64,000 nucleotides of DNA. Source: a virus. Location of the stretch: positions 92,596-156,595 of the IMG/VR virus record IMGVR_UViG_3300035210_000132; one strand, 5' to 3'. The translations under genes and the position numbers were made by a program. Below are positions 37,718-63,100 of the stretch, piece after piece (the first letter of the stretch is position 1; each line of letters opens with the position of its first letter). Under the pieces are notes generated by a model, which saw only the letters and a program-made list of their open reading frames with translations, made no database searches and was not told the origin of the DNA.

Positions 37718-37952
37718 CAGCCGTGCCCCGGGAGGGGGCGGCCTCATGGAGGTCACATGTGGAACGGAAGGAAAAGGCAGAGCAGGCACCGTTGTAGCAA
37801 GAAGACTAAGGGAAAGCCTCACTGCGGTAACGGAGTCTGTTACGGATTCAGGGAAGCAGTGAGGGAACGGTACGAAGGTAGGAAGCTAGTGCATCTCTGG
37901 AAGCAGGAGAAGGATCCAGAGGCCTCTGATTTGTAAGCAAGTTCGATCTGGG

Positions 37953-38050
37953 GTTGGGTATGGACGGTTCCATCTGGCGATATCCAGAAAACCCGGTTCG
38001 ATTCCGGGGAGCACTTGGTAGTGTGTTCGGTTCGACTCCGAAACTCAACC
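37953..38050 (+). ncRNA. 98-nt tRNA-like element with a tRNA-type acceptor/D/T framework, a 6-nt 'anticodon' loop, and an extra internal T-arm-like hairpin (cccgg-TTCGATT-ccggg) in the variable region
   Basis: Acceptor gttgggt/actcaac, D atgg/ccat, T ttcgg-TTCGACT-ccgaa. Does not fit a standard cloverleaf. Confidence 0.35.
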
Positions 38051-38055
38051 CCTCT

Positions 38056-38139
38056 GGAGAGTGAATTGGCTGTGGAGCCAGACCCGCTTGGAAGGCGGTG
38101 GGAGCTGCAAGGCTTAGTGTTCGACTCACTCGCTCTCCG
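38056..38139 (+). tRNA. tRNA-Ser(GGA), type II
   Basis: Acceptor ggagagt/gctctcc, D tggc/gcca, anticodon loop ttGGAag, long variable arm, T tagtg-TTCGACT-cactc. Confidence 0.75.
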
Positions 38140-38153
38140 CTTAGGAGTAAGCT

Positions 38154-38354
38154 ATGCCTACCCTGACCCTAGAAGAGATCATGAAGATAGATAAGTGCCG
38201 TATGATCATAACCATCAACCCGGATAAGAAGTGTACCAACGTAGCTGCGTACCGACACAAAAAGTACGAAAACCACGTTATCTGCCGGGAGTGCTACCAG
38301 CAGCTAGAGGAGGGTATAGAAGACCACTTCGAGCCTATTCCTCCTGTTAAGTAG
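38154..38354 (+). CDS. hypothetical small protein
   Basis: RBS 'taggag'. Confidence 0.4.
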   Translation: MPTLTLEEIMKIDKCRMIITINPDKKCTNVAAYRHKKYENHVICRECYQQLEEGIEDHFEPIPPVK

Positions 38355-38361
38355 TTGCCTA

Positions 38362-38445
38362 GGAAGATAAAGTCGCCATGGGGCGGCCGCTGCTTCGAAA
38401 GCAGATGGGGCTGAGAGGCCTGGGGTTCGAACCCTCTGTCTTCCG
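38362..38445 (+). tRNA. tRNA-Ser(CGA), type II, with an irregular D-arm and T-stem. Its acceptor is identical to Ser(TGA).
   Basis: Acceptor ggaagat/gtcttcc, anticodon stem ctgc/gcag, anticodon loop ttCGAaa, T tgggg-TTCGAAC-cctct. Confidence 0.6.
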
Positions 38446-41804: not shown

Positions 41805-41832
41805 CTCCCGCCTTGGGTCGTTCTGACCACTA

Positions 41833-41866
41833 AGATGCCGACACTCCTCGGCATCTTTATTTAAGA
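41833..41866 (+). terminator. Rho-independent terminator
   Basis: 'gatgccgacactcctcggcatc' hairpin + 'tttattt'. Confidence 0.7.
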
Positions 41867-42252
41867 CTGAACCGGTAAGCTCTGGTAAACTGGGCCCCGC
41901 CGTAAGAGAAGCGGGTACTCAGTAGGCTCGTGGCTGTGGGCTACACTGGACAGTCCGGTCAAGCACAGCCCGTTCACCAACAGGCCCATTCTTTTTAGGC
42001 ACTACCTGGATCTCTGACAAAGGCTAGTACGGACGGGCCACGGTTCACTCCCAGGGCGTGGGAGACCTACTTAGGCAGTATGCTAAGGTCAACAGCCGCA
42101 GAGCGGCGACGTCTAGGGCATTACTGCAAGCGTCCGTAGTTGGCCTGAAGCAGACGGCTCAGGTAAACACGGTCGCCTCATGTTAGAGCTCACGAAGCTC
42201 CTGAGAGGCAAGAGGGTGAGAGCTTGCCCGCAGGGTGTAGAAAGGTCCTTCC

Positions 42253-42480
42253 ATGATCAAAGAAGTCCATCGTATCTATGACCGATCCCTCTTCCGCGAC
42301 CCTTACGGTCGCCTCTACTTCGACAAGTGCGCCACCCCGCAAGAACACCTGTTGGCCCCTCTCCAGGAAGGGGAGGAACGGCGGAGCTGCCGGGTGTACC
42401 TGGAAGACCTCTTCACCAACTTCATCGGGCCCCAGCACGCCGTCTACATCACCATCGTCGCGGAGGAGCCTGGAAAATGA
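42253..42480 (+). CDS. hypothetical protein
   Basis: ORF. Confidence 0.4.
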   Translation: MIKEVHRIYDRSLFRDPYGRLYFDKCATPQEHLLAPLQEGEERRSCRVYLEDLFTNFIGPQHAVYITIVAEEPGK

Positions 42481-51125: not shown

Positions 51126-51590
51126 ATGCCTAGCAAGAGCAACGAAAAGCAAGTCGGGTTACCGGAGCTGCCTTCCCAGTCCTTGGAGCAGATCCTCGGT
51201 TCCGAGGGGTACCTGAAGGGGTGGCTCACTGCCATCCGGAGCAGGGCGATCGCCATCAAGGAGGCCATCGAGACCAGGAAGGATAAGAAGGAGTACTTCG
51301 AGTACCTGGAGACCACCTTGTTCAAAGTGATCGATGAGACCCTGAAGCGCCTCCCGAACAAGCCCAAGATCCCTGAAGAGGAGACCCTGGAATACAAGCT
51401 CCAGAACAACATGTCCCTGTTCCGGGTCAAGTTCGGGGACGGGGAGGAGGAGCCGGGGTCTTGCCATGTAGTGGCAGTTTCCATGGAGGAAGCCACCAAG
51501 CGGGTCCAGCAGGAGGTGATGCAGAAGGGGGAGCGGGTGTTGAACGTCTGGGAGCTGGATAGTTATGCGGTGGTGGCCCTGCCCAAGTAG
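51126..51590 (+). CDS. hypothetical protein
   Basis: RBS 'ggagg'. Confidence 0.45.
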   Translation: MPSKSNEKQVGLPELPSQSLEQILGSEGYLKGWLTAIRSRAIAIKEAIETRKDKKEYFEYLETTLFKVIDETLKRLPNKPKIPEEETLEYKLQNNMSLFRVKFGDGEEEPGSCHVVAVSMEEATKRVQQEVMQKGERVLNVWELDSYAVVALPK

Positions 51591-51599
51591 GGCTACAGG

Positions 51600-52600
51600 G
51601 CACCAAAGGGGGAGCTAACCCTCTTCCCTTAGCTACCTAGCAAAACTCCCCTCTTCCAGGAGATAAGTCTTATGTACCCAGACCAACGCTAGCTACTTGG
51701 GTACGAAAGGCTAGGTGGCCATGAATCTGACCGTGAGCCTAAACAATGGAAGGAGGTGGGAAGTGACCTGGCGACATTAAACCCAGCACACTGGGTGCGC
51801 AGTATAGAAGGGGGCCTGAGTACGCACTACGCCCGCTTCTTAGCCCTCAGCCAGAGCCCCCAAAATCCCCCAAGTAAATTTTCAGGCCCCTGTAGACCCC
51901 CCAAGCGTTTATTCGAGGTACCCACCCCCCTACCCCCTTAAACCCTCCCCAAAAAACAAGGCTCTCACGGGGAGCGATGGGTTCCTGTCCTAGGGGAGCC
52001 TTTAACTCCCCCCAAAAAACACGGGTACCACAGTCCCCCCGGATCGAGCCAAGTAGTACCTGTTCACTAAGCCTAGCAATTAGCGATGCCTTGCTTGCGA
52101 GCGTAGTGCGCTCCCTTGGGTGGGCTACAGGAGGCGCAAAGGGGTGCGGAATATCCGATGTTGGTATTTACCCCCTGGGGGAAACGACACCTTGGAGTTA
52201 TTCGGTGCACTTGATGGGGCTACAGAGGCATGAAGGACGCACTAGTATAGCATGAAGTGAGGAAATCTCGCTTTCTAGCTAGGGGAAGTGTAAGATCGAC
52301 ATAGCACTTTCGAAATACCATTATATTTATCGCAGAAGTAAACTGTAAAACCCGACTCTTTCCGAGTTTTTGAACGCTACATGATCAGCTATCCCTATCT
52401 ACCTAGCTACCTAACTAGTAACTCGTACTCCTTCCTCTTACCTACTCCCCTTACTTCGCTTTACTAAGGATAGACCGAACATCGCCTACCTCCCTTGGGC
52501 GCACTTTTGGGAGAGCTGGCTGTGCTCTCGTGCTTGCGGCTGGGTGTAGGTGAGCTGCGCAATGATACTTGTTGCTTCGGGTATAAGAGAGTTGAGGAGG
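51600..52600. other. ~1-kb non-coding region: GATAAG box (51660), a poly-C tract with repeated 'cccc(c)aaaaaaca(a/c)gg' (51830-52060), then AT-rich and CT-rich blocks (52290-52480). Candidate origin or packaging region.
   Basis: No credible ORF in any frame. Strong compositional skew compared with flanking DNA. Confidence 0.4.
52583..52592 (+). promoter_or_regulatory. GTATAAGAGA promoter-like box
   Basis: Upstream of the ATG at 52606 (RBS 'gaggagg'). Confidence 0.45.
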
Positions 52601-52605
52601 TCACT

Positions 52606-52791
52606 ATGTTCTGGTTGATCTGTGGCAGCTACATGCTGGTGACTGCCAGCTTGTTGTTCTTCGATGCGCTCCCTGCGATCAAGGAAGGCAACGACATCCA
52701 GTGGTGGACGTACTTCTGCTGGCCGCTCTTCCTGGTAGCCTTCGTGCTTCACCTGCCCTTCATGGTCCTGTCGTACATGACGCGTAAATAG
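52606..52791 (+). CDS. small two-TM membrane protein (61 aa)
   Basis: 'MFWLICGSYMLVTASLLFFD...WWTYFCWPLFLVAFVLHLPFMVL'. Confidence 0.5.
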   Translation: MFWLICGSYMLVTASLLFFDALPAIKEGNDIQWWTYFCWPLFLVAFVLHLPFMVLSYMTRK

Positions 52792-53477: not shown

Positions 53478-53999
53478 ATGGGTCTGAAGCCCAACTTGAC
53501 TGATGAGGTTTTGGTGTTGCACAAGCGCTATCTGGGCGCGACCTGGAAGATCTGCAGCATCTGGACATCAGGAGAATCTTGGAAAGATGAGAGCGGCGAG
53601 GACGACAGTGAGATCGTCCCCGAGTTCATGCCCGGATCCATCATCAAGGCGATGGGCTATCTGTACGTCTTCCCTGAGATCCTCGTCTGGATGGTGATCA
53701 AGCACGTGCACCCCTCTGGGAACGATCTCAGGCCCTTTACCTATGGCGAGATATTGGGTCGGGAACCCGAGGGGGTAGTTTCACATACCCCTTGGGGCTC
53801 CACGCTAACTTCGAGCTTCTGCTGTGAGCCCTACCCAGAGATGCTGGCGAGAGTGGTTGACGTGCCCGACCCTAACAAGGGAAAGAAGTTCATCAGTCAC
53901 TTCCCTTCGACGTGTCCGGCGTGCCGTAGCCCTGCCTACCAGGGCTACAGCTCCTTTGTCTGCAGCCGTCCTGGCTGCGATCCCACAAGGAAAGGATGA
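53478..53999 (+). CDS. hypothetical protein with C-terminal zinc ribbon, paralog of the next ORF
   Basis: 'STCPACRSPAYQGYSSFVCSRPGCDPTRKG'. Confidence 0.45.
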   Translation: MGLKPNLTDEVLVLHKRYLGATWKICSIWTSGESWKDESGEDDSEIVPEFMPGSIIKAMGYLYVFPEILVWMVIKHVHPSGNDLRPFTYGEILGREPEGVVSHTPWGSTLTSSFCCEPYPEMLARVVDVPDPNKGKKFISHFPSTCPACRSPAYQGYSSFVCSRPGCDPTRKG

Positions 54000-58352: not shown

Positions 58353-58392
58353 CTTGTACTTAGCTATCAGTGCAAGAAGAGGCCAGCTTACG

Positions 58393-58403
58393 AGATAAGG
58401 GCA
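58393..58403 (+). promoter_or_regulatory. GAGATAAGGGC promoter-like box
   Basis: Upstream of 58442. Confidence 0.4.
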
Positions 58404-58441
58404 AGTACCCACCCTTTTCTTTTAGTCACGAGGAGAACCCC

Positions 58442-59407
58442 ATGGGATCACAGACCGATGCATGGATGTCCTGGCTGGAGAACATTGAAGTCGGGCAGCA
58501 AAGGGCTCTTTACGAAGTACTGACTTCTCGTTTCTCGCAACAAGATGACGACTCCATCAGGGTGATCAGAACGCCTATCGAGGATCTCATGATCGAGGAT
58601 CCTCCTGTCTACGTCGACATCTTCAACCTTCACGAAATCTACAAGCGCTTAGCTTTCAACACCAACATCATCCTCAAGGGCCCCAAGGGAGATGGCAAGA
58701 CCCTGTCGATCTTTGCCTATGCTGCAAGCATCAGTTGTCCCCTGGTCATCCAGGAGTGCAGTGAGGAGACCAAGAAGTACGACCTCATGGGCTCGCAGAT
58801 GTTCATCGGTGACGAGACGGTCTACATGCTCGGCTCGGTACCGACGGCCATCGATATAGCCAACGAGGTTGGACAGTGCATTCTGCTCTTCGAAGAGCTC
58901 AACGCTCTCATGCCTCAGACCCAAAAGCAGCTCAACGCCATCTCCGATTTCCGGAAGATGGTCTCGATGCCCCACATCGGGAAGAGTTACAAGCTTCGGG
59001 AAGATGCCAAGGTCTGGGTGGTCGGTACCCAGAACCCTTCGACCTATGGCGGGTCCTATGACATGAACGAGGACTTGAAATCTCGTTTCGAGGAGATCGA
59101 GCTCACCTACCCAGAGCACGGGCAAGAGAAGGGCATTGTCAAAGCTGTCTGTGGCACGCTGGCCGCCGATGACCTCATAGACAAGGTCTTACGCTTCGCC
59201 AAGGAGACCCGGCAACAAGCTACGGGTTATGCACTCTCTACCCGAGACGTCAATCGCTTCATCCACACGGCGGCCAAGATCGGACTCGACAACGCGCTGC
59301 AGCTGGTCATTGGCAAGTTCGAGGATGCAGACAAGGACACGGTGATGAAGCGTATGGCCTCAGTGTTCGGTCCCAAGGCAGTCAAGAAGTTCTGGGGGGC
59401 TCTATGA
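58442..59407 (+). CDS. MoxR-family AAA+ ATPase (CobS-like)
   Basis: Walker A 'GPKGDGKT', Walker B 'ILLFEELNA', MoxR sensor 'VVGTQNP'. RBS 'gaggag'. Confidence 0.7.
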   Translation: MGSQTDAWMSWLENIEVGQQRALYEVLTSRFSQQDDDSIRVIRTPIEDLMIEDPPVYVDIFNLHEIYKRLAFNTNIILKGPKGDGKTLSIFAYAASISCPLVIQECSEETKKYDLMGSQMFIGDETVYMLGSVPTAIDIANEVGQCILLFEELNALMPQTQKQLNAISDFRKMVSMPHIGKSYKLREDAKVWVVGTQNPSTYGGSYDMNEDLKSRFEEIELTYPEHGQEKGIVKAVCGTLAADDLIDKVLRFAKETRQQATGYALSTRDVNRFIHTAAKIGLDNALQLVIGKFEDADKDTVMKRMASVFGPKAVKKFWGAL

Positions 59408-59736
59408 GGAAAGCTATTGTTTCACTGGAATTGCCTCCAGCCGTGCGTACACTCGTTGTGGAAGTGCAGGATCCTGGGATCGTTCGAGGGTTTCTTACGG
59501 GCATTCGCCAGAAGCCCGTGCTCGTGGGCAACGGGAACCAGGTGGTCGAAGAAGTGCCCACTCTCCTTGTCGAGGTGGACCCCGATGCCCCGAAGAGAAA
59601 ACGGTCCTTCCTCATCGTAGACACCAACGAAGTCATCGAGAACAGTAGCGGCCTTGTCTTCGTGACCTATATCACCTCACGCACCGGAAAGGTGTACCAC
59701 CTCTTCGAGAACACGAACTACCTCCCGGATCTGTAG
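59404..59736 (+). CDS. hypothetical protein
   Basis: ORF overlapping the CobS-like stop. Confidence 0.4.
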   Translation: MRKAIVSLELPPAVRTLVVEVQDPGIVRGFLTGIRQKPVLVGNGNQVVEEVPTLLVEVDPDAPKRKRSFLIVDTNEVIENSSGLVFVTYITSRTGKVYHLFENTNYLPDL

Positions 59737-59744
59737 GAGCGCTC

Positions 59745-62027
59745 ATGAAGAAGCATGGCTACGCCACGCATGGATCCCTAAGACACGGATCATCAGGGTA
59801 CCAGGGCGAGGGCGGGTGGTTTGACAAAGACCCCTTCTATCGCACCACCGATATCTTCAACGGAGTCTTCAAGAAAGCCATTCGTCTTGATCAGGCCTCT
59901 TCCCCCACCAACTCCACGGACCTTAAGAAGATCTACTTGAACTACGGAGAGATCTTCTTCAAGACCATCATTTCCCTGAAGGGCCCGGGGAGAGATGGGT
60001 TTCACTCTGAGTATGTGCTCGAGTGTGGGCACACATGGGAAGGGAAAACCGACCACACACCAGGGAAGGACGTAGGACGTTGTTCCATCTGTTCCGCCAA
60101 TCAGGTGTACTTAGCCTTCGAGCATGAGTGGCAGCACATCATCTTCAAGAGTGATCTCGCCACGCGTCAGCTCTTTGTGCAGGCCTACGTCGATGATCTC
60201 TCCAAGAATACAGCAGGGCTAGACACGCTACAGCTACAGGATTTCATTTCCCTCCTGATCAACGCCTTTGACGACCTGCGCTGCAACTCGCTCTGGGAGA
60301 AAGTTTACCCAGGCTCTGCCCAGCAGATATGGGAGCGCTGGCAACGTCTTACCGCCACCGAGCATGGGGATAAGATCAATACCAACTTCCTGAGCTTCAT
60401 CTTCGCCAAGGCGTTCGATGTCCACACAGACCCTGACGGAGAGTTTGCGACTCTCGAGCCCATCGTCAGATGGGGCATCGAGAAGGTCAAGTACCGTGGC
60501 TTCGCCAACATGCTTGTTGATGTTCGTGTTGTCTTGGACCGTTGCATGGGCGTGCTTCTGCAAAGCATGCGTCAACCCCAACCAGGAGTTCCCAATGCTC
60601 GACCCCAGCAAGGTGCAAAAAGACCTGATGCAGCCCAAGACCCAGGAGGAGGTTCTCCGGGTGGAGATCCAGGCCAGGGAAGTGGAGCCGAACCAGGGGA
60701 TCATAACGATACAGGTGAAGACGGCGACTCCACAGGAACTGGAGCAGATCCTCAACCTACTGATGAGGAACAAGAGTCGGATCCTGGAACAAATCCTGGG
60801 GATGGTGCCACCCCCTCTATAGAACAAGCGCCTTCGGCCAGCACCCTAAACCCTACACCCGAAGAAATGAGCAAAGCTCTTCAGAAGCTTGCTCAGGGGG
60901 CTCAGGCCCTCGACCCCAAGGAGACGCACCGAGACCCTGATACCGAGCAGTTGAGTGACGCTCAGACGTCGCAAGCCGTGAAGGCCACTATCCGTAGAGC
61001 GCTGAATGCAGACCTGGCTGATGCGAAAGCTCTGGATCAGATGCTGGGCAATGAGGTTGACCCGGACATGCAGCAAGCTTTGACCCAGCTCATGAATGGA
61101 GTTGCCCAGAAGTCGGAAACGTCTCAGCTCACCCAGGATGCCAAAGCCCGCATCTTACTCATCGAGGTGCAGCCTAGTGATGTAGCAGATGACCCAGAGA
61201 TCGAGCTCAGTACAGATGAGATAAATCGCGTACGCCACATACGCTCGGCTTTCTTCAGGGCCTTGGGTAGACAGAAAGCTAGCAGAGCTCCTGAAGGTCT
61301 GGTGATCGATGTTCCTGCTTTGATAGCCTACAAGCTGGACCACGAAGACTCGCACGTCTTCGAGGGCGAAGCCATTCAGCAAGGGTTCGCCTACTCGATC
61401 TTGTGCGACATGTCAGGATCGATGCAGGATACTTTCCCCTTGGTGTGCCACGCAGTAGAAATGCTGAAGCAGGCCCTCAAGTTCCCCTTCGTGGTAGGTA
61501 ACCTCTGGGGCTTCCGAGGAGGGGAAGGGTCTGCGGGCAGGCCTGGTCGTGATGGCGAAGTCTGGATCTACCGCTACCATCCCAAGGTCAAGGGCTACCT
61601 CGGAACCGCCCGCTCAGGGAAACACGGAAACTTCTCCGTCCCTGTCACGTGTGGAGGGCTGACTCCCATGAACCCAGCGCTCCGGGTTACAATAAATCAC
61701 TTGTCGCGAAAGATGCCTTCGGGGATGGCGAAGCGTCTGTTCTTGCTGACTGATGGATCGCCTTGCTCTACTCGAGTAGGGGGAGGCCATCAGTCGGCGA
61801 ACACTTTGCGGAGGTTCGTAGCCAAGGAGATTGAAGGGGCAAGGAAACACGGCATCCAGGTGTTCACCTTGGTCATCGGTCGACACGCCATTGCAGAGGA
61901 AGAGTGTCGTGAAATGTTCGGGCAGCCTCGTTTTTGGAAGCGGGTGGATGAGCCTGACCGAGTAGGAGCAGTCCTCGCTAGGCTGGTCCTAGAGAATTTC
62001 CAGCGCTACATCAAGATCCGTGGATGA
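59745..62027 (+). CDS. CobT-like protein with C-terminal von Willebrand factor A (VWA) domain and a central acidic/Gly-Pro-rich low-complexity region
   Basis: MIDAS 'CDMSGSM...LLTDGSP'. Acidic tract 'GDPGQGSGAEPGDHNDTGEDGDSTGTGADPQPTDEEQESDPG'. Paired with the upstream MoxR AAA+ gene. Confidence 0.6.
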   Translation: MKKHGYATHGSLRHGSSGYQGEGGWFDKDPFYRTTDIFNGVFKKAIRLDQASSPTNSTDLKKIYLNYGEIFFKTIISLKGPGRDGFHSEYVLECGHTWEGKTDHTPGKDVGRCSICSANQVYLAFEHEWQHIIFKSDLATRQLFVQAYVDDLSKNTAGLDTLQLQDFISLLINAFDDLRCNSLWEKVYPGSAQQIWERWQRLTATEHGDKINTNFLSFIFAKAFDVHTDPDGEFATLEPIVRWGIEKVKYRGFANMLVDVRVVLDRCMGVLLQSMRQPQPGVPNARPQQGAKRPDAAQDPGGGSPGGDPGQGSGAEPGDHNDTGEDGDSTGTGADPQPTDEEQESDPGTNPGDGATPSIEQAPSASTLNPTPEEMSKALQKLAQGAQALDPKETHRDPDTEQLSDAQTSQAVKATIRRALNADLADAKALDQMLGNEVDPDMQQALTQLMNGVAQKSETSQLTQDAKARILLIEVQPSDVADDPEIELSTDEINRVRHIRSAFFRALGRQKASRAPEGLVIDVPALIAYKLDHEDSHVFEGEAIQQGFAYSILCDMSGSMQDTFPLVCHAVEMLKQALKFPFVVGNLWGFRGGEGSAGRPGRDGEVWIYRYHPKVKGYLGTARSGKHGNFSVPVTCGGLTPMNPALRVTINHLSRKMPSGMAKRLFLLTDGSPCSTRVGGGHQSANTLRRFVAKEIEGARKHGIQVFTLVIGRHAIAEEECREMFGQPRFWKRVDEPDRVGAVLARLVLENFQRYIKIRG

Positions 62028-62034
62028 TCACGAC

Positions 62035-62066
62035 TGCACTCGAGAGATCGGGTGCAGTTCTTTAGC
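62035..62066 (+). terminator. Rho-independent terminator
   Basis: 'ctgcactcgagagatcgggtgcag' + 'ttcttt'. Confidence 0.6.
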
Positions 62067-62099
62067 GCTGAGATGCAGATCAAAGAACAAAAAGATACG

Positions 62100-62111
62100 G
62101 ATATAAGAATA
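62100..62111 (+). promoter_or_regulatory. GATATAAGAATA promoter-like box
   Basis: 'cggatataagaatacatgaaggaggaaattgATG'. Confidence 0.5.
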
Positions 62112-62128
62112 CATGAAGGAGGAAATTG

Positions 62129-63100
62129 ATGATCATGCTTGCTCAGACGATCTCTGTCGAGAAAGCATCAAGTGAACCGTATCTGTTACGGCAGCTGATC
62201 CTGGAAGCGTCTGTGCTAGCTTCCCATATTTACGCGGATCTCGATGGCATAGTGTCGTTGTTGCTGGCCAAACAGATACGCGCCTCAGCTGGAAAGCCAC
62301 CGGCTGAGGTTTTGTTCATCCAGGCCAACACCTCCTTTCTCGAGGAAGGTGTCCTGGCGCTCGATATGGGCGAAGGGAGGGGAGTTCAGAGATTAGGAGA
62401 TGGTTATTCTATAAAAGCATCGGCTCTAGGAGGAAGTGCCACGATGGCGGTCCTCCGCTGCATGGATCCGGAAGACCATCACATCTTCCGTTCCTGGGCC
62501 AAGGCCGTCAGCAACGCTGACGAAGGACGCAACATACACACGCAGACCATGGAGAGACATGGGGATCTCTACGAAGAGGAGAAGAGCCAGATCAAGACTA
62601 CGGTTGACTGGTTCACCCACGGCTCTTTGATGCGGGTGATGGGGGATTATGAGCTCCTGTACTGGTGGGAGCAGAAGTTCCGGGGCATGCTTGTATCGGG
62701 CAGGATCGCCAAGGTAGCCGCAGAGCAGGCACGAATAGCAGAGTTTTTGTATCACAACCTGTTTGCTATTCTTCCTGAGAACGCCTCGAGTGACGCCACG
62801 AAGTTCGTCACCAAAGCTGGGGCAGTAATTGTGACGTTCTCCGCCTCGATGGGAGGGAATCGGTGGAAGCTTGGGCTGACCACCCGGAGCAACTTCATAA
62901 ACTTTGCGACCATCGGCAACCGCATGCTCGAGGAATTCCCCGACATCTTCGTCGACCAGCGGGGGCGCTTGATTGGTTGGACTGCGAAAGGCCCTTTGTG
63001 CTGCACAAGAAAGGAATACGAAGAGCGAAAGGCGGCGTTCCTGTGCGTCGCTAAGGAAGAAGTTCTTGTTTACCTGAAGGCGGAGGGCTTCTTGACATAG
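62129..63100 (+). CDS. hypothetical protein
   Basis: RBS 'gaaggagg'. Confidence 0.5.
   Translation: MIMLAQTISVEKASSEPYLLRQLILEASVLASHIYADLDGIVSLLLAKQIRASAGKPPAEVLFIQANTSFLEEGVLALDMGEGRGVQRLGDGYSIKASALGGSATMAVLRCMDPEDHHIFRSWAKAVSNADEGRNIHTQTMERHGDLYEEEKSQIKTTVDWFTHGSLMRVMGDYELLYWWEQKFRGMLVSGRIAKVAAEQARIAEFLYHNLFAILPENASSDATKFVTKAGAVIVTFSASMGGNRWKLGLTTRSNFINFATIGNRMLEEFPDIFVDQRGRLIGWTAKGPLCCTRKEYEERKAAFLCVAKEEVLVYLKAEGFLT

Follow-up and report, generated by a model that had tools for sequence, protein, structure and literature searches.

The intergenic region at positions 51591 to 52605 (1,015 nt) is non-coding, and we tentatively interpret it, with rather less than even confidence, as a transcribed regulatory spacer between two gene blocks. 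The feature itself is real, and its function we infer. If this interpretation holds, the region would mark a boundary in transcription within a lineage of giant phages. The DNA analyzed here (a stretch of 64 kb, hereafter the window) comes from an uncultivated giant phage-like genome of ~199 kb, as given by its cluster record. Nearly every gene in the window is carried on the + strand, including 32 tRNA genes, all of them on that strand, and a group I intron is detected with Rfam models.

The gap extends from the TAG stop codon of the open reading frame (ORF) at 51126 to 51590 to the ATG at 52606, the start of the ORF at 52606 to 52791, which is preceded by the ribosome-binding site GAGGAGG. 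The earlier note described a gene-free region of about 1 kb, and this is borne out, with the 1,015 nt showing no coding signal in any frame. All six frames contain 13 to 21 stop codons each, of all three kinds, and the sole ORFs in the gap, of 61 and 92 amino acids (aa), have codon scores of -0.02 and -0.14 compared with +0.35 to +0.49 in the flanking genes, and GC3 values of 0.58 and 0.49 compared with 0.80 to 0.86; there is no PHROG match to the 92-aa ORF. Codon-phase GC periodicity falls from 0.34 to 0.66 in the flanking genes to 0.04 to 0.20 in intervals starting at positions 51750 to 52425, and by a conservative measure of coding signal the core at 51982 to 52482 (501 nt) is the longest stretch in the window that lacks it. 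A hidden gene, a recoded gene, and a pseudogene are ruled out by the stop codons of all kinds, the codon scores, and the periodicity.

Aligning the regions upstream of genes reveals a bipartite motif, GCAAAA-N14-G(G/A)NATAAG, which from its sequence and placement we take to be the phage's own promoter. The + strand of the window has 23 copies of the G(G/A)NATAAG element, as against one for the minus strand, and the GCAAAA box is usually ~14 nt upstream of the element. With a weight matrix derived from 21 sites (leaving out P1, described below) and a cutoff of 14 bits, 22 sites are found, every one of them on the + strand. In most cases a ribosome-binding site and start codon follow the promoter site after 24 to 60 nt, and a relative at ~60% protein identity has the same -10-like element.

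Promoter boxes had been proposed at both ends of the gap, and this phage-specific family confirms them. The first, P1 (GCAAAA-N14-GAGATAAGT; 51640 to 51669, + strand; 24.2 bits), lies 50 nt past the upstream stop codon and is directed into the ORF-free region. The second, P2 (GCAAT-N15-GGTATAAGA; 52559 to 52589, + strand; 20.0 bits), immediately precedes the ribosome-binding site of the gene at 52606, and the stretch in which it lies is similar to the region upstream of the gene at 53478. Both have the fixed-spacing bipartite motif of the family and are on the coding strand. Because the P1 motif is at the left edge of the gap and is directed into it, + strand transcription of the region from P1 is very likely, with a predicted start near 51677. 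A perfect 7-bp hairpin, GTACCCA/TGGGTAC (51674 to 51704, + strand; inverted repeat I9), sits at the predicted 5' end of this transcript, and the + strand fold of 51600 to 51799 has a z score of -2.6. A minus-strand 'terminator' at 51663 to 51647 lies across the P1 spacer and GCAAAA box and was judged to be a by-product of that promoter.

The C-tract cluster at 51857 to 52040 is C-rich and G-poor on the + strand and G-rich on the minus strand. It contains nine runs of at least four C residues, the densest such cluster in the window, together with 4 of the window's 12 runs of at least six, and its fold is no more stable than those of shuffled sequences. The poly-C tract repeats reported in the earlier note are therefore upheld, and they include two exact copies of CCCCAAAAAACA, at 51947 and 52010, which is found nowhere else in the window; allowing one mismatch gives three matches, a count reached in none of 100 shuffles. 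These motifs are contained within the two copies of a 33-nt repeat (family D2; 51936 to 52031), which are 79% identical and 63 bp apart, and the conserved part of this repeat reaches past the U-tract (GGGGRGRGTTWAAGG). The 63-bp spacing, ~six helical turns, would suit a DNA site for protein binding no less than a terminator. The minus strand also carries a canonical G-quadruplex motif at 51921 to 51950 (CCCACCCCCCTACCCCCTTAAACCCTCCCC on the + strand), the only one on that strand in the window. GC skew in the region reaches -0.55, and the C/G ratio over 80 nt is 3.9 at 51880 to 51959 and 3.4 at 52400 to 52479. The compositional asymmetry claimed for the region is thus strong but not unique, with these two 80-nt segments ranking third and fifth for C over G in the whole window.

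Several other repeats are present. There are direct copies of GGGCTACAG on the + strand at 51590 to 51598 (overlapping the stop codon), 52122 to 52130, and 52217 to 52225, plus an inverted copy with one mismatch at 51890 to 51898; the exact 9-mer is present three times in this 1 kb and seven times in the whole window. For TAGCTACCTA, there are two exact copies and one with a single mismatch. Collectively, the direct repeats of the region exceed those in 150 of 150 dinucleotide shuffles, and they are slightly above those of other real 1-kb segments of the window outside the tRNA region. A 26-nt imperfect inverted repeat (I1; 77%) has its left arm at 51880 to 51905 and its right arm at 52115 to 52140, enclosing 209 bp that contain the two terminator-like sites T1 and T2 described below, although the region has no more inverted repeats overall than chance would give (p 0.45).

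An AT-rich block at 52286 to 52385 has a GC content of 0.36, the lowest of any 100 nt in the window. It had been described as the only AT-rich stretch, of which the low GC content stands and the word 'only' is overstated, because other promoter regions of the window have GC contents of 0.37 to 0.40. The CT-rich block that was reported alongside it is a pyrimidine-rich segment of the + strand at 52356 to 52470, which carries the TAGCTACCTA copies; the 100 nt at 52356 to 52455 are 70% pyrimidine, the second highest in the window. The region's sole tandem repeat, three copies of an 8-nt unit at 52394 to 52417, lies within this block, and a second C-rich, G-poor segment is located at 52380 to 52480.

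The AT-rich block contains a minus-strand sigma-70-like promoter, TTTACA-18-TATAAT (52349 to 52320), whose hexamer spacing falls within the 16 to 18 nt of this promoter class, and a leftward transcript is predicted from it with a start near 52312. This is an 11/12 match to sigma-70, the sole one in 128 kb of searched strand, to a consensus that may not be that of the host. We note that an 11/12 match is expected by chance an estimated ~0.2 times per window, and more often in AT-rich DNA. Runs of at least six T residues are infrequent in the 64 kb (six for the + strand, seven for the minus strand), and the region's two A6 motifs, in reverse complement, account for two of those seven. At ~300 and ~360 nt downstream of the leftward promoter, these motifs form parts of T1 and T2, whose hairpins end within 1 to 3 nt of the T run. 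T1 (52014 to 52064, minus strand; hairpin at 52064 to 52020, U6 at 52019 to 52014) has an 8+2-bp stem with a 21-nt apical region and a dG of -15.9, and stops 1 nt short of UUUUUU; in 4.8% of trials a hairpin as good ends close to a randomly chosen position, which is mildly significant. T2 (51951 to 52001, minus strand; hairpin at 52001 to 51957, U6 at 51956 to 51951) is weaker, with a dG of -11.2 and a + strand complement that folds better (-22.2), and a hairpin as good is found near a random position in 21% of trials, which alone is not significant. A stricter intrinsic-terminator scan reported neither site.

The leftward sigma-70-like promoter and the two hairpin-plus-U6 sites together lead us to predict a minus-strand non-coding RNA of about 300 to 360 nt; the fold of a 300-nt version is no better than those of shuffles (z +0.77). 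A long non-coding transcript was among the earlier suggestions for this region, and it gains support from P1, the converging sigma-70-like promoter, and the two hairpin-plus-U6 sites, with all transcript ends being predicted. No + strand intrinsic terminator was found between P1 and P2.

It is plausible that RNA polymerase initiating at P1 (~51677) produces an untranslated + strand RNA, of which the middle part (51830 to 52060) would be C-rich, G-poor, weakly folded, and similar to a Rho-loading site. RNA of this type has the composition for Rho loading, as in lambda tR1 and enterobacterial leader attenuators, and P1 transcripts may thus be terminated or attenuated short of the downstream genes, with a diffuse stop predicted between ~52050 and ~52300. 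The predicted RNA would have a rut-like composition (at least ~80 nt in which C clearly exceeds G and folding is slight) in the two 80-nt segments of high C/G ratio, where fold z scores are 0 or above. Since there is no + strand intrinsic terminator and the C/G ratio is as high as 3.9 in RNA that would be untranslated, Rho is a plausible stop signal if the host encodes it. On the other strand, the host-type (sigma-70-like) promoter in the AT-rich block would fire leftward, and its RNA would end at T1 or T2, near 52013 or 51951, to give products of ~300 or ~360 nt, with the CCCC(C)AAAAAACA repeats presumably acting as the U-tracts and G-rich flanks of the minus-strand terminators. P2 would drive the downstream operon from a predicted start at ~52596, and the converging transcripts could insulate this operon from upstream read-through, or time its expression. 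We note, however, that a 1-kb spacer is long for mere insulation, which counts against this explanation.

In its proposed mode of action, the region probably comes closest to two known kinds of system, the antisense and converging-promoter control regions found in temperate coliphages and the Rho-dependent leaders. The former include lambda OOP/cII, P22 sar/ant, and coliphage 186 pR/pL, and they share with this region a non-coding location between gene blocks with face-to-face promoters, and a short untranslated RNA ending with a hairpin and U-tract, the RNA here being predicted. In contrast, those systems are 0.1 to 0.3 kb long and overlap coding genes, whereas this region is 1 kb with no gene overlap and has no sequence similarity to anything. 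The Rho-dependent terminators and attenuator leaders include the lambda tR1 rut site and the enterobacterial mgtA, corA, and rho leaders, and here the resemblance is in more than 80 nt of untranslated C-rich, G-poor, weakly structured RNA past a promoter, followed by a G-rich segment able to pair with the C-rich segment. Rho-dependent terminators have no defined rutA/rutB consensus for comparison. All features of the region are in keeping with an intergenic control region of a phage.

By the sequence comparisons made, the region appears to be a member of no sequence-defined family. A blastn search of the region against phage and plasmid records gave no match, no isolated phage relatives were found, and Rfam 15 (4,227 models) returned nothing for the region at the gathering threshold; at E<=10 its sole match is a spurious snoRNA (E 8.3) inside the upstream gene and not in the gap, and no tRNA or tmRNA was found in the gap by ARAGORN. 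The doubled CCCCAAAAAACA pattern is, however, present in two unrelated viral contigs among the public collections scanned, where it forms iteron-like arrays in non-coding DNA. The 23-nt repeat core has no match in IMG/VR, and elsewhere is found in one unrelated bacterial contig.

The genes around the gap are similarly isolated. Neither flanking protein has relatives in IMG/VR, and the upstream one has none in JGI metagenomes; a search of 1.84 billion representatives with the 154-aa upstream protein returns that protein alone, a 182-aa protein has zero matches among 5.8 billion sequences, and exact-protein matches are to the same phage only. The predicted structures of both flanking proteins are too poor to use (pLDDT 46 and 33), and nearly all proteins around the gap lack a family assignment (Pfam, PHROG). 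Base-for-base identical copies of the sequence are present in two Logan assemblies. An AAA_5 ATPase module is located 6 kb downstream of the gap, and in relatives identified through AAA_5 (~60% identity) the downstream module is common and none of the genes around the gap are present. Among the relatives compared, the neighborhood of the gap thus appears to be unique to this phage. The lineage has no cultured member and its gene content is almost wholly orphan; the region is specific to this lineage and, as far as the evidence goes, of an ordinary kind.

This isolation bears on the rather unlikely alternative that the region is mostly a functionless spacer, a recombination leftover in a hypervariable accessory region in which P1 has been orphaned and the composition reflects sequence history and not selection. 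The phage-specific neighborhood, the absence of the surrounding genes from the AAA_5 relatives, and the self-match of the upstream protein all favor such an origin, but several window-wide extremes are gathered here (the C-runs, the GC minimum, and the best sigma-70 match), as much as 1 kb of inert DNA is seldom retained in phage genomes, and the lack of residual codon periodicity shows that this is not a recently decayed gene. Another reading is an origin of DNA replication, with unwinding at the AT-rich block and initiator binding at the short phased repeats, and this we regard as unlikely. Transcription-primed or iteron-type origins such as ColE1 RNA II, T4 oriF/oriG, the T7 primary origin, and lambda ori have in common with this region a promoter adjoining an AT-rich block, a G-rich RNA on a C-rich template, and helically phased short repeats. 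In favor of an origin here are the lowest-GC 100 nt of the window, direct repeats at a level that 0 of 150 shuffles reach with spacings of 63 and 95 bp (~6.0 and 9.0 helical turns), and the occurrence of CCCCAAAAAACA in the non-coding iteron-like arrays of two unrelated viral contigs. The best sigma-70-like promoter is also directed into the C-tract block, so its RNA would be G-rich, and the canonical G-quadruplex motif would be on the displaced strand. Leftward RNA might then form an R-loop on the C-tract template, with the G-quadruplex on the displaced strand, and prime synthesis. Transcription priming is the mechanism of ColE1 RNA II, T4 oriF/oriG, and mitochondrial CSBII, but a ColE1- or mitochondrial CSBII-like origin acting through a persistent, G-quadruplex-stabilized R-loop is improbable here. 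Unlike the known origins, the region has only two to three short copies per repeat (9 to 12 exact bases) and no iteron array, and its repeat scores barely exceed those of other real 1-kb segments. There is no DnaA box at one mismatch or fewer in the region, no recognizable replication protein or initiator gene within 5 kb (Pfam, PHROG), and no minimum of cumulative GC skew at 52 kb on the 64-kb scale of a ~199-kb genome. For the replication origin suggested in the earlier note, the region thus offers the AT-rich minimum and a few short repeats, both generic, with no DnaA box, no iteron array, no recognizable initiator gene nearby, and no skew turning point at 52 kb in the 64-kb profile.

It is doubtful that a new functional non-coding RNA of ~0.3 to 0.7 kb, from either strand, is the main product of the region, whether as a C-rich decoy binding Rho or Shine-Dalgarno sequences or as a structured RNA of an undescribed family. 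Promoters on both strands, the absence of an ORF, and long-range complementary segments (51823 to 51836 with 52097 to 52110, and 51880 to 51905 with 52115 to 52140) are consistent with such an RNA, and the folds of ~680-nt versions are a little more stable than those of 20 shuffles each (z -2.3 and -2.7), but most 200-nt segments fold like shuffles, inverted repeats are at chance level, and no Rfam family is matched even at E<=10. GOLLD, ROOL, tmRNA, and group I introns (Rfam) are comparable in size range and in their setting in a tRNA-rich giant phage, yet the region matches none of them at any threshold and has no significant excess of complementary segments. A strongly structured RNA is unsupported, given the chance-level inverted repeats and mostly unremarkable sliding-window z scores. 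A pac/cos site and a nuclease-resistant terminus were also among the earlier suggestions, and we consider it very unlikely that the region is a packaging site or a physical genome end (pac, cos, or a terminal-repeat boundary). It does hold the window's longest stretch without coding signal, and a contig of a second sample, SRR10968272, stops at 52537, inside the region, which may be chance; however, one contig end is weak evidence when the assembly has low coverage, both the window and the other assembly continue through the region without a break, and there is no recognizable terminase gene nearby. Least probable of all, and barely credible, is an invertible DNA switch, in which the I1 arms (51880 to 51905 and 52115 to 52140) flank 209 bp with the one-directional T1 and T2, and a flip moves termination from minus-strand to + strand transcripts. 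The geometry of I1 is suitable, and its 9-mer core also recurs as a direct repeat, but the arms are only 77% complementary, which is at chance level, no recognizable recombinase gene is nearby, and the orientation is the same in both available assemblies.

Apart from the region itself, the promoter family GCAAAA-N14-GNNATAAG provides a means to map operons in this genome, and is the more useful by-product of the analysis.

The non-coding region (51591-52605) has a strong Shine-Dalgarno-like AAGGAGG on the + strand at 51750-51756, followed 6 nt on by a GTG with a five-codon frame. A 19-codon ATG mini-ORF lies in that same frame, about 50 nt downstream of P1, the inward-pointing phage-type promoter copy at the region's left edge. 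Together, the mini-ORF and AAGGAGG (within 51721-51780) could represent a leader peptide or a chance arrangement. We note that L002, the matching contig from a second sample (SRR10968272), ends within the non-coding region at window position 52537, 70 nt upstream of the gene at 52606. The Logan contig of SRR10968280 begins at window position 13616, and the window therefore derives from a longer record.

The GCAAAA-N14-G(G/A)NATAAG(A) promoter family is genome-wide and, counted over the whole window, has 22 sites on the + strand (e.g., 47377, 48324, 48884, 50300, 55697, and 57791) and none on the minus strand. The -10-like part of this motif is likewise found upstream of genes in L004, a relative identified through its AAA_5 ATPase. 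The two genomes have a conserved module in common (window 58370-63100, + strand; L004 10001-14697) coding for this MoxR-like ATPase, DUF7352, and proteins of ∼750 and ∼322 aa. Metagenomic data yield 147 homologues of the ATPase (E ≤ 1e-5), with identities of 42 to 64% among the 120 listed, on contigs of up to 220 kb, which points to a large clade of uncultivated phages.

The sequence CCCCAAAAAACA also occurs, by happenstance, in dense iteron-like tandem arrays of two unrelated viral contigs (L008, 300-1140; L009, 150-420), and these arrays resemble control regions for replication or packaging. Among non-coding gaps outside the tRNA region, the second largest (∼450 nt, 41805-42253) follows a strong terminator at 41835-41860 and has no Rfam match at E ≤ 1.

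The window codes for 32 tRNAs on the + strand between 18611 and 39889, covering nearly every amino acid; the tRNA at 20264-20336 (+) has an 8-nt anticodon loop with the anticodon 'attg'. Three additional tRNA-like elements (37952-38444, +) have tRNA-Sec as their best Rfam model but score 25 to 33 bits, below its gathering score of 47, and ARAGORN calls no tRNA here despite these elements and several + strand T-loop motifs (GGTTCGAnTCC). For an 883-aa ORF (30710-33361, +), Pfam gives a match to the shoulder domain of Major Vault Protein at E = 7e-28 (PF11978) and, at 28.0 bits and so under the 28.8 cut-off, one to a vault repeat (PF17795); such a putative vault-protein-like gene is unusual in a phage-like genome. 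A group I intron (9361-9634, +; Rfam, 60 bits) spans the end of ORF 8886-9542 and lies directly upstream of ORF 9620-10294, a placement suggesting a split gene.
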